Positions 35,219 to 58,595 of a stretch of 64,000 nucleotides of DNA are shown here, in pieces. A model generated the notes under the pieces. The model was not told where the DNA came from. It saw only the letters and a list, made by a program, of their open reading frames with translations, and ran no database searches. The position numbers and the translations under genes are program-made. The stretch spans positions 23,188,001 to 23,252,000 of the forward strand of contig OX597838.1 in assembly GCA_951406725.2 (NCBI GenBank). The letters run 5' to 3'. Every line of letters begins with the position of its first letter. Position 1 is the stretch's first letter. Origin of the DNA: Octopus vulgaris. Lineage: Eukaryota.

Positions 35219-37468
35219 AAAAGCCACAAATGTTTTGTGGAGAGGCACGTTGATTTGAACTCAGAACATAAAATGAGCAAAATGCAACAAAGCATTTTAC
35301 CAGGCGTGCTAACGATTCTGCCAACTTGCCACCTTTAATGATAAATAAAGTAATTAAATAACGGTTTCTCTCAGACCTAAAGCCACAAATGTTTTGTGGA
35401 GAGGCATGTTGATTTGAACTCAGAACATAAAATGAACAAAATGCAACAAAGCATTTTACCAGGCGTGCTAACGATTCTGCCAACTTGCCACCTTTAATGA
35501 TAAATAAAGTAATTAAATAACGGTTTCTCTCAGACCTAAAGCCACAAATGTTTTGTGGAGAGGCATGTTGATTTGAACTCAGAACATAAAATGAACAAAA
35601 TGCAACAAAGCATTTTACCAGGCGTGCTAACGATTCTGCCAACTTGCCACCTTTAATGATAAATAAAGTAATTAAATAACGGTTTCTCTCAGACCTAAAG
35701 CCACAAATGTTTTGTGGAGAGGCATGTTGATTTGAACTCAGAACATAAAATGAACAAAATGCAACAAAGCATTTTACCAGGCGTGCTAACGATTCTGCCA
35801 ACTTGCCACCTTTAATGATAAATAAAGTAATTAAATAACGGTTTCTCTCAGACCTAAAGCCACAAATGTTTTGTGGAGAGGCATGTTGATTTGAACTCAG
35901 AACATAAAATGAACAAAATGCAACAAAGCATTTTACCAGGCGTGCTAACGATTCTGCCAACTTGCCGCCTTTAATGATAAATAAAGTAATTAAATAACGG
36001 TTTCTCTCAGACCTAAAGCCACAAATGTTTTGTGGAGAGGCACGTTGATTTGAACTCAGAACATAAAATGAGCAAAATGCGACAAAGCATTTTACCAGGC
36101 GTGCTAACGATTCTGCCAACTTGCCGCCTTTAATGATAAATAAAGTAATTAAATAACGGTTTCTCTCAGACCTAAAGCCACAAATGTTTTGTGGAGAGGC
36201 ATGTTGATTTGAACTCAGAACATAAAATGAACAAAATGCAACAAAGCATTTTACCAGGCGTGCTAACGATTCTGCCAACTTGCCACCTTTAATGATAAAT
36301 AAAGTAATTAAATAACGGTTTCTCTCAGACCTAAAGCCACAAATGTTTTGTGGAGAGGCACGTTGATTTGAACTCAACATAAAATGAACAAAATGCAACA
36401 AAGCATTTTACCAGGCGTGCTAACGATTCTGCCAACTTGCCACCTTTAATGATAAATAAAGTAATTAAATAACGGTTTCTCTCAGACCTAAAGCCACAAA
36501 TGTTTTGTGGAGAGGCACGTTGATTTGAACTCAGAACATAAAATGAACAAAATGCAACAAAGCATTTTACCAGGCGTGCTAACGATTCTGCCAACTTGCC
36601 ACCTTTAATGATAAATAAAGTAATTAAATAACGGTTTCTCTCAGACCTAAAGCCACAAATGTTTTGTGGAGAGGCACGTTGATTTGAACTCAGAACATAA
36701 AATGAACAAAATGCAACAAAGCATTTTACCAGGCGTGCTAACGATTCTGCCAACTTGCCACCTTTAATGATAAATAAAGTAATTAAATAACGGTTTCTCT
36801 CAGACCTAAAGCCACAAATGTTTTGTGGAGAGGCACGTTGATTTGAACTCAGAACATAAAATGAACAAAATGCAACAAAGCATTTTACCAGGCGTGCTAA
36901 CGATTCTGCCAACTTGCCACCTTTAATGATAAATAAAGTAATTAAATAACGGTTTCTCTCAGACCTAAAGCCACAAATGTTTTGTGGAGAGGCACGTTGA
37001 TTTGAACTCAGAACATAAAATGAACAAAATGCAACAAAGCATTTTACCAGGCGTGCTAACGATTCTGCCAACTTGCCACCTTTAATGATAAATAAAGTAA
37101 TTAAATAACGGTTTCTCTCAGACCTAAAGCCACAAATGTTTTGTGGAGAGGCACGTTGATTTGAACTCAGAACATAAAATGAACAAAATGCAACAAAGCA
37201 TTTTACCAGGCGTGCTAACGATTCTGCCAACTTGCCACCTTTAATGATAAATAAAGTAATTAAATAACGGTTTCTCTCAGACCTAAAGCCACAAATGTTT
37301 TGTGGAGAGGCACGTTGATTTGAACTCAGAACATAAAATGAACAAAATGCGACAAAGCATTTTACCAGGCGTGCTAACGATTCTGCCAACTTGCCGCCTT
37401 TAATGATAAATAAAGTAATTAAATAATGGTTTCTCTCAGACCTAAAGCCACAAATGTTTGGTGGAGAG
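35219..37468 (-). repeat. Tandem satellite of about 14 x 159 bp, each unit containing a family B SINE head
   Basis: AAGCCACAAA at 35221 and 35380 gives period 159; units nearly identical; 2-nt deletion in the unit near 36375. Confidence 0.95.
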
Positions 37469-38251
37469 AGGCACAATCACCTGTGTCACACCCCACTCAC
37501 ACCGCCACACTCGTTTCTCTGCTATTTATTTTATCGATCATTTATATTTTATAAGCCATTGATTCTTCCGCCAGCATGTTATCAACCTGGTTGGCTTTGT
37601 TGTCTGTCTCCTGTTTGAAACATGTCCGATAGTCTGCCTGCTTACCTGTATGACTGTCTGTCTGTCTGTCCGTCCGGGCCACCTGCCTGTATGTCTGTCT
37701 GTTCATCTGTTATGATTGTCCTCTCTCTCTCCCTCCCTCCTCCTCCCTCTCTCTCTCCCTCCCTCCTCCTCCCTCTCTCTCTCCCTCCCTCCTCCTCCCT
37801 CTCTCCCCCCCCTTACCACCTCTGTACACAGTCTTTCAATAGTGTCCTGTCTCCTTGGTAATATTGTTTCTTTGACTCTCTCTCTCTCTATCTCCTTCCT
37901 CGTGGCCACCACCCTCAGAATTTTTTTTTTTTTATCTATCGATTTATCTATACATTTCATTTCATTCAACCATCAGGCACTTATGATTACAACTATTTAT
38001 TATTATTATCATCATTATTATTTCTAGGTTTTTGTAATATTTTCCCCAAAGCCTATTGGTCACAGCTGACTTCACTTCCATACTTTGCTGTCTTACTACT
38101 ACTACTACTACTACTACTACTACAATAATTATTATTACTGCTGTGACCACCATAACACATTTTTGTTACTCCTGGTTTCTTCAGTTTTATACTGGTTAGA
38201 AACAAATAACTCTTGAATGTGAAATATATATATACATATATATGTGTGTGC

Positions 38252-38513: not shown

Positions 38514-38719
38514 TTTTAAGACCTTCTATGCAATTTTGATTTTCCCTGTAAATTTGGATTTATTCCCTAATATTTATTATTATATATATATGTATATATA
38601 TATATATAAAGTGTGTATCTCTCTCTATATATAAAGTATGTGCGTGTACATATATATATATTACAGAGATGTACTTGCATAGCTAGTGACCTGATCTGAG
38701 ATCGTATGCTGGAACGAAA

Positions 38720-39007
38720 ACAATTGCAGCGTGGAAGGTGTTTATAAGCCATTTACGAAACACACAAAATCTGTTAGATTCACTTCAACATTTAAATTTA
38801 ATTTGTCAAAATATTTTCGTCACTTTGAGTCCGCGACCTGTTCGCTGACAAAATTCCAAGATGCAGCACGGAATTTTATCAGTGAACAGGTCGCGATCTC
38901 AAAGCGACGAAAATATTTTGACAAATTAAATTTAAATGTTGAAGTGAATCTAATGTTTTTCGTGTGTTTCGTAAATGGCTTATAAACACCTTCCATGCTG
39001 CAATTGT
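38720..39007. repeat. Near-perfect fold-back of about 290 bp
   Basis: ACAATTGCAGCGTGGAAGGTGTTTATAAGCC...AAATTCC / GGAATTTT...GGCTTATAAACACCTTCCATGCTGCAATTGT; loop about 38858-38869. Confidence 0.95.
38872..38927 (+). ncRNA. Variant hammerhead motif with G3-C8 core; mirror copy at 38800-38855 (-)
   Basis: tttatca GTGAACA g gtcgc gatctcaaa gcgac GAAA atat TT tgacaaa. Confidence 0.55.
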
Positions 39008-39110
39008 TATATATATATAAAAGGAAAGTTTACGAAAATAAACAAAAGACGAAAGCAGGTGGAGTACAAACAAACAAATGTATTAGTATAGCGCTCAGGA
39101 ATAGAAAAAG

Positions 39111-39145
39111 TCTTATGTTTCAAGCCTACGCTCTTCGACAGAAAG
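39111..39145 (-). ncRNA. HHR motif, CTGTCGA-core family (element about 39020-39210)
   Basis: Minus strand reads cttt CTGTCGA a gagc gtag gctt GAAAC ATA aga. Confidence 0.5.
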
Positions 39146-39660: not shown

Positions 39661-40084
39661 TGTGTGTGTATATGTGTGTATGTGTGTGTGTGTGTGTTTG
39701 TATATATATCCCAACATGCATATGTCCATGATGCAAACGATTCTACCAGCTTAATATAGCAATGACAGTTTTAATTTCAAATTTTGGCACAAGGCCAGCA
39801 ATTTTTTTTGGGTGGGGGGGATAAGTTGATTAGATTGACCCCAGTGCTCAGCTGGTACTGATTTTATTGACCCCAAAAAGACGGAGGTCAGAGTTGACCT
39901 TGGTGGAATTTGAACTCAGAACGTAAAGATGAGCGAAATGCTGCTAAGCATTTTGCCCATCATACGATCAATTCTGCCAGCTCTCCACTTTACTGATTAA
40001 TAGAACATCACTTTCAAGTTTTGACCCAAGGCCAGCAATTTCTGGTGGGGTTGGATAGGTTGACTAGTTCGACCCCAGTGCTGT

Positions 40085-40530: not shown

Positions 40531-41344
40531 AGAGGCCGGTACTTATTTTATCGACTCTGGAAGAACGAAAGGGAAATTCGGACCTCAGGTGGAATTTGAA
40601 CCCAGAACATAAAAGACCGGTGAAACGATGCTGCGTGCTAACGATTCTGCCAGTGTGCCACCTGATAACAATAGACTTATGAACAAGTACATGAAAGAGC
40701 AACAACTGCATAACAAAATAACAAAACAATATAATAAAAGAAGCAACAATAAATAATAAATAGCAATAATAGGTTTTTTTTCAGTCAATTTTGTCAGTTA
40801 TCCAATCAATTTTTCATATTCTGTTTTAGTTGGGGTTTTTTTTATTTTTTATTTTTTGTCATTTTTATTTATTTTATTTATTCTCCATTGCAATCTATCA
40901 TACAACCCAATCATATAATTTCAATAATACAGACCAATCATACAGTCTAATCTACTGTCCAATCAAATTGCTTGACTTTTGATTTCCTGTTTTCTTTATA
41001 TTTGATTAGGTATTTTTTGTTGTTGTTTTCTCTTCTTTTTTTTTGTCCCGAATTATATGTTCACCACTCTTACACACGTGTGTATGTATATGTATGATAG
41101 ACACAGATATATAATACAATAGTGTGTGTGTGTGTGCCTTTTATCTGTTAGTTGTTTCAGTTGTTGGACTATGGTCCCATGGGGGCACTGCTTTGGAGAA
41201 TTTTAGTCAGTCAAATTGAACCAAGTACTTATTTTTTTTTAAGCCTGGTGTTCATTTTATTGGTTTCTTTTGATGAACAGAGCTAGAAGGATGTAAACAC
41301 ACCAACACCAGATGTCAAGTGCTGGTAGTAGTAGGACAAACACA

Positions 41345-58559: not shown

Positions 58560-58595
58560 CTTTCTGTCGAAGAGCATAGGCTCGAAACGTAAAAG
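58560..58595 (+). ncRNA. HHR motif, CTGTCGA core with intact stems (element about 58482-58692)
   Basis: cttt CTGTCGA a gagc atag gctc GAAAC GTA aaag. Confidence 0.6.

Follow-up and report, generated by a model that had tools for sequence, protein, structure and literature searches.

Within the window, by which is meant the whole 64-kb stretch of DNA analysed, two inverted arms of 139 nt each (38719-38857 and 38870-39008) are 92% complementary to one another. Each arm carries the same series of elements, in the order stem I, GUGAACA, an extra G, stem II, GAAA, a palindromic AAUAUU and U17. The sequence-only reading of this DNA had described a two-arm fold-back in the hammerhead register with GUGAACA in place of CUGANGA, and the sequence is as described in both arms. 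The interval it proposed, 38800..38927, holds the motif, but the element extends further and spans 38660-39008. Likewise, both arms do carry the motif, but they are copies of one element and do not constitute independent evidence. The features, in plus- or minus-strand orientation, are these:

38660..38857, minus strand: left arm, an inverted copy of a Penelope-like terminal repeat (pLTR) with a tail extension
38660..38718, minus strand: tail of ~59 nt, present on one arm only, a signature of Penelope-like insertion
38802..38852, minus strand: left-arm hammerhead, with U4C at 38844 and a predicted cut between 38809 and 38808
38845, minus strand: left-arm G3
38859..39008, plus strand: right arm, a 5'-truncated pLTR copy from which the tail is absent
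38875..38925, plus strand: right-arm minimal type I hammerhead, with a predicted cut between 38918 and 38919
38875-38881/38919-38925, plus strand: right-arm stem I
38882..38888, plus strand: right-arm core G3 U4 G5 A6 A7 C8 A9, with the swapped 3-8 pair
38889..38889, plus strand: extra G between A9 and G10.1, common to sister families and relatives
38890-38894/38904-38908, plus strand: right-arm stem II
38909-38912, plus strand: right-arm GAAA
38912..38917, plus strand: palindromic stem III AAUAUU, too short in a monomer; pairing between two motifs is predicted
38918, plus strand: right-arm U17
38975..39008, plus strand: likely start of the element's open reading frame, with a putative ATG at 38975 (38752 in the left arm), ~57 nt past the cut site

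An inverted insertion of two Penelope-like terminal repeats

A strict minimal-hammerhead descriptor in which positions 3 and 8 are left free matches the window once on both strands, at 38882. Twelve Markov-shuffled windows gave 0.08 matches each, none of them with a Watson-Crick 3-8 pair. The three-way junction that defines a type I hammerhead is present, with stems I and II in register. The literal C3 and G8 of CUGANGA are absent, and positions 3 and 8 are instead Watson-Crick complementary, G3-G8 exceptions amounting to ~3%. Stem I of the right arm contains one A-C mismatch. The palindromic stem III proposed earlier exists, but its in-register part is AAUAUU (15.1-16.1), since the longer AAAUAUUU includes A14 and U17; the computed energy of the stem III duplex between two motifs is only -0.2 kcal/mol. 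An alternative register, with C3 two bases further upstream, was rejected because it would yield G17 and lose the palindrome. The U4C change of the left arm is private, occurring in 0/56 copies of the anchor-picked sample described below. An Rfam scan of the 64-kb window at the gathering threshold returned 0 matches, and searches based on CUGANGA exclude the variant by construction, as had been foreseen.

The arms represent two pLTRs, inverted relative to each other, of a Penelope-like retroelement encoding a reverse transcriptase (RT) with a C-terminal GIY-YIG endonuclease. In ORF-bearing copies the pLTR unit sits ~1 kb behind the end of the GIY-YIG ORF, and longer copies show, upstream of the unit, a microsatellite-rich stretch of ~1 kb and then the ORF end. 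The GIY-YIG domain (PF01541) scored above cut-off in the element ORF. Pfam gave no RT match, and the RT piece was named from its homologues (39-56% identity) and a YVDD motif; a linker cysteine motif was also seen. Copies of the element stop at two places ~59 nt apart, and in the window the longer end is found on the left arm only. Two hallmarks of endonuclease-bearing Penelope-like elements are thus present: the pLTR is preceded by an RT bearing a C-terminal GIY-YIG, and there is an inverted 5'-truncated copy with a one-sided tail. Such inverted, truncated arms, with a tail of 30-40 bp at one end, are described for Penelope-like elements (PMC8557442), and the window feature is on this basis a short inverted insertion of two pLTR copies, 38660-39008. 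The Neptune/Nematis-type elements of Craig et al. 2021 (PMC8557442) differ in that their reported tail is 30-40 against ~59 here; of the marks that would place the element with them, the linker cysteine motif is the one seen. The features that mark Penelope minimal hammerheads (an extra nucleotide at 9/10.1, a short palindromic helix III and location in the pLTR) are all found. The proposal of a natural hammerhead variant is supported, although it had missed both the membership in a Penelope-like element and the supposed action of this class as dimers.

As a repeat, the arm is dispersed through the 2.8-Gb host genome, where a first look gave 2,338 candidates. A segment of a protein attributed to Octopus vulgaris matches this genome at 100%, making an octopus the likely host. 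A transcript spanning the window feature is computed to fold as a hairpin of ~-208 kcal/mol which buries the motif, and the window copy has one motif per strand with no partner on the same strand. On account of the 139-bp fold-back, the U4C in one arm and the single motif per strand, the window copy is likely to be a dead, inert insertion. In a sister family, two motifs do lie on one strand, in tandem elements with a period of 4,589 nt. No tandem full-length copies of the G3-C8 family were found in the 2 same-strand candidate pairs on contig C1, one of which is a local duplication and the other two separate insertions. Contig C16 is enriched for long ORF-bearing copies of the family (23/40 top matches) and for G3-G8 copies.

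Positions 3 and 8 in the family and its relatives

Exact patterns with the same flanks found 6,326 copies in the host genome. G3-C8 accounts for 5,800 of these, G3 with a base other than C8 for 352 and bases other than G3 for 174, whilst reversed-pattern controls gave 0 matches. Because exact patterns fix the bases adjoining the core, a core-independent sample was added, comprising 87 distinct arms obtained via an anchor ~50 nt downstream of the motif and drawn from the first 89 of 5,916 anchor matches, all on C1. The core is spanned by 59 of the 87 arms, and 52 of these 59 are G3-C8. The remainder of the motif is similarly constant in the anchor-picked copies: U4 G5 A6, A9, G12 A13 A14, A15.1-U16.1 and H17 are each found in 52-56 of 56, G10.1 in 55/56, C11.1 in 50/56 and U17 in 56/56. 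The expectation that G3/C8 would prove fixed in the consensus of genomic copies, and that GUGAACA, GAAA and the stems would be conserved with it, is thus borne out by both counts. Contigs of three further organisms hold the family as well; in these, no G>C places reach at least 3%, and C>G places number 2, 1 and 0. Two insect-metagenome RNA sets with a small share of family words were discounted as evidence.

No C3-G8 subfamily was seen inside the G3-C8 family among the first 100 of the 174 non-G3 copies. A looser pattern, with 23 matches, found 2 family copies with C3-G8 (L172 and L179), for which single reversions in G3-G8 copies are the best explanation.

Sister Penelope families in the host genome share their stem II frame and extra G with the G3-C8 family. 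A pattern leaving 3 and 8 free recovered 30 sister motifs, of which 22 are C3-G8; the other eight comprise three T-G, two A-G, one G-G, one C-A and one copy of the G3-C8 family itself. Homology of the pLTR behind the motif was detected in two of the five sisters tested, the score of L278 being reached by 1/1,000 shuffles and that of L265 by 5/1,000; L257, L196 and L175 were not significant. A young sister family (RT identity 53%) carries C3-G8, and the long ORF of a sister family begins past the hammerhead, in the region that corresponds to the putative ATG of the G3-C8 element. More distant comparison is provided by a metagenomic set of 34 loci with a related endonuclease, 25 of them having at least 200 nt downstream. 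Eight sense-strand motifs lie behind these endonucleases (six C3-G8, one C3-A8 and one A3-U8), against 0.015 expected per shuffled set, and scanning both strands added one C3-G8 and one C3-A8 on the opposite strand. The A3-U8 motif (L225:1710-1750, plus strand) is a minimal hammerhead whose stems are intact and whose stem III is nearly palindromic; it is known from a single copy, located 385 nt behind a related GIY-YIG ORF.

A structural alignment was built from 16 motifs hand-picked as representatives. In this alignment 94% of cells are paired (94% in stem I, 97% in stem II), a level which 0/500 shuffles reach and which slid controls, at <47%, do not approach. Two-sided changes occur in 9/12 pairs, a count inflated by relatedness among the rows. 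The 3-8 pair is CG in 12 motifs, GC in three, which together represent one evolutionary event, and unpaired in one. As the sister families and most of the metagenomic relatives carry C3-G8 at the homologous position, G3-C8 is, judged from these sequences, a derived state reached by two transversions, and the structure of the motif is in other respects conserved across animals. This agrees with the original suggestion of a covarying natural variant.

Proposed cutting by the swapped core and its alternatives

The active hammerhead fold has positions 3 and 8 paired with each other, and among double changes in this core region PMC9901934 reports rescue by the G:C swap only. In the hammerhead of the anole Penelope PAc, single mutants were dead and the C3G/G8C double mutant was partly active (PMC11167929). 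The premise that compensatory 3-8 swaps partly restore activity is in line with both sets of mutagenesis. Cutting by the anole hammerhead is reported to require the element's protein, and insertion in vitro to proceed without cutting (PMC11167929). Minimal Penelope hammerheads are described as slow and are thought to act as dimers (PMC4209133, PMC6765202). A G3-C8 core is stated to be more active with G17 than with C17, as data not shown (PMC3884650).

It seems rather probable that this minimal hammerhead in a Penelope pLTR, with G3-C8 where its sisters have C3-G8, preserves slow self-cutting in the source element. In view of the published 3-8 rescue, the need for protein, the work on dimers and the presence of U17, a weakly active ribozyme that depends on dimerisation and protein is the favoured interpretation, ahead of a dispensable relic, to which a minor share of the probability is given. 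Were the source element transcribed in tandem, stem III would form between two motifs by pairing of their palindromic AAUAUU. With nucleotide 8 kept in its active position by the G3-C8 pair, cleavage would take place after U17, probably aided by the element's protein. U17 may also avoid a G3-C17 trap that is possible with C17; it is found in some C3-G8 relatives too.

Some indication of constraint comes from variants common to many copies, which were taken as marks of changes in source elements. At a threshold of at least 15%, such variants fall at 1/41 structured positions versus 8/55 loop or flank positions (one-sided Fisher P=0.043; 0.029 at a 10% threshold and 0.072 at 20%). The sole structured variant is an A-to-G change which keeps a U-G pair. 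As four of the eight free variants amount to one loop change, these figures hint weakly at avoidance of structured positions by subfamily-level variants.

The leading alternative, which we regard as possible but clearly the less probable, is that the motif descends from a hammerhead whose cutting was dispensable. C3 would have changed to G, G3-G8 elements would have transposed anyway, and drift, template switching or better folding for RNA-protein binding would later have given rise to C8 or spread it. Several observations accord with such a history. The first is the G3-G8 form itself. In the host genome 205 copies match G8 with S3, and no C3 is present among the 100 listed. On contigs C1-C8 there are 41 C8-to-G copies versus 7 G3-to-C copies, which exceeds the expectation from decay, and the unpaired form has thus likely been amplified. 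G3-G8 copies occur on several sequence backgrounds, with 18 of the 100 listed lying on C16. Their non-CpG divergence of 0.033, compared with 0.026-0.032 for G3-C8, gives no separation in age, and a tree of 25 endonuclease-region rows, built without matches of <350 aligned bases, left 17/21 inner branches open and did not recover the order of the two forms. The second is the young sister family, in which position 9 is C in 86 and A in 11 of the first 100 of 4,307 matches (A9C examples are L196:2586-2592 and L385). This family has intact 1,312-codon frames, with ORFs in tandem, and its A9C is either another natural variant of the core or an indication that cutting is dispensable. Both the G3-G8 subfamily and the A9C sister family make it less secure to argue from covariation that cleavage is required.

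The ends of DNA and RNA copies also bear on this alternative. The 5' ends of 61/87 arms fall within the first 20 positions, upstream of the motif, whilst 1/87 starts at the cut site, apparently through an internal deletion; because the ends cluster upstream and not at the cut site, genomic copies derive from uncut RNA. Among 1,837 RNA reads on both strands there was no pile-up of ends and no dip in coverage at the cut site. The reads were drawn from a single raw-read set, of which ~6% was read and which comprised at most 4 samples; as the library was an ordinary cDNA one, the test is weak. Most of these reads are probably read-through of dead copies and for that reason say little about source elements. 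In addition, cleavage was reported as unneeded in vitro for another Penelope (PMC11167929). Set against all this, the dominant form bears exactly the change that restores the 3-8 pair, G3-C8 outnumbers G3-G8 ~28 to 1, and the rest of the core is without a subfamily-level variant. G3-G8 elements may, moreover, be mobilised in trans, or may cut with a wild-type dimer partner.

It is attractive to consider, if only tentatively, that the 3-8 pair crossed a fitness valley, from an ancestral C3-G8 as in the sisters, through the amplified unpaired G3-G8, to a compensated and active G3-C8. If this were true, the A3-U8 of L225 and the published U3-A8 would complete all four Watson-Crick versions of the 3-8 pair in nature, and with the A9C sister family the series would amount to a natural allelic series on whether Penelope elements need ribozyme cutting.

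A further explanation, which we consider improbable, is that a different signal, for instance splice acceptors or a pLTR promoter element, accounts for the retention of G3 and C8, and that the restored pair is coincidental. G3 and C8 each create a CAG behind pyrimidines, the Penelope intron of D. virilis is reported to end at helix I (PMC4209133), and an acceptor-like stretch lies ~20 nt before the core, with 39/87 arms starting within 3 nt of its AG. This upstream stretch is nevertheless retained in RNA, as seen in 151 loose-ended reads, and no splice joint falls at positions 3 or 8 among the joints listed. A coding constraint on positions 3 and 8 is likewise unlikely, both being likely outside the coding frame because the putative ATG lies downstream of the motif. 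A chance look-alike, or mutations private to the window copy, might be suggested by the lack of an Rfam match and the private U4C of the left arm, but is refuted to the point of being negligible by the census of 5,800 exact copies against zero control matches, the core-independent sample, the shuffled controls and the homologous position and covarying stems of the relatives.

Two observations on the RNA and on long copies may be added. Long copies (L003:1470-1496, L008 and others) contain a branch-point-like word, a pyrimidine run and an AG ending ~20 nt before the core. In RNA on L002:1470-1710, A>G is seen at 28 places and T>C at 30, versus 3 and 5 in DNA contigs, an excess likely to reflect A-to-I editing of fold-back RNA from inverted arms, with RNA and DNA coming from different organisms.

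Known systems and other repeats in the window

The minimal hammerheads of Penelope elements (Cervera and de la Pena 2014, PMC4209133) resemble the octopus motif in their location in the pLTR, the extra 9/10.1 nucleotide, the G10.1-C11.1 pair and a rudimentary palindromic helix III, and also in being present as thousands of truncated single copies and inverted opposite-strand pairs. They differ in having CUGANGA where GUGAACA is found here, and H as the extra nucleotide where G is found here. The sole 3-8 covariant reported among them is U3-A8 in Schistosoma, with ~1,300 matches. The Penelope-like variants of Lunse et al. 2017, as related in PMC6765202, likewise have a reduced stem III and cleave as dimers. 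A natural compensatory change at 3-8 is also seen in the U3-A8 hammerheads of Perreault et al. 2011 (PMC3088659). U3-A8, however, involves two transitions and keeps a pyrimidine at 3 and a purine at 8, whereas G3-C8 involves two transversions and places a pyrimidine at 8. Engineered C3G/G8C hammerheads (PMC11167929, PMC9901934) have the identical swap, reportedly with partial rescue, but were made in the laboratory, whilst the octopus G3-C8 is natural, family-wide and accompanied by U17.

No natural G3-C8 hammerhead was found in the literature searched, the coverage of which is incomplete, so that an earlier description is possible and a first report is claimed provisionally. The portions available of PMC6155905, PMC11014351 and bioRxiv 10.64898/2026.07.22.740005 hold nothing on natural G3-C8. 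What this family adds is its high copy number, an outgroup which fixes the direction of change, and unpaired and A9C forms that have been amplified. The swap familiar from laboratory rescue is met here as the natural, family-wide state, its direction fixed by relatives. Since the usual hammerhead search pattern demands C3 and G8, it overlooks this family with its thousands of copies, and genomic counts of ribozymes are therefore underestimates. The function of hammerheads in Penelope-like elements has been described as unclear (PMC8557442). With C3-G8, G3-C8, G3-G8 and A9C all amplified in one genome, the relation between cutting and transposition success becomes testable.

The window contains other repeats. 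A second hammerhead-like repeat, probably from another Penelope family, occurs at 39141 and 53324 on the minus strand and at 58564 and 6096 on the plus strand. It has U at position 6 (CUGU-C/A-GA), an extra A and a stem II of 4 bp; stem II is damaged in the copy at 39141, which is 130 nt away from the G3-C8 insertion. A tandem array at ~36000-37470 consists of a 159-nt unit in at least 10 copies with 95-100% identity, and this unit is related to dispersed repeats at 39902-39991 and 40588-40663.
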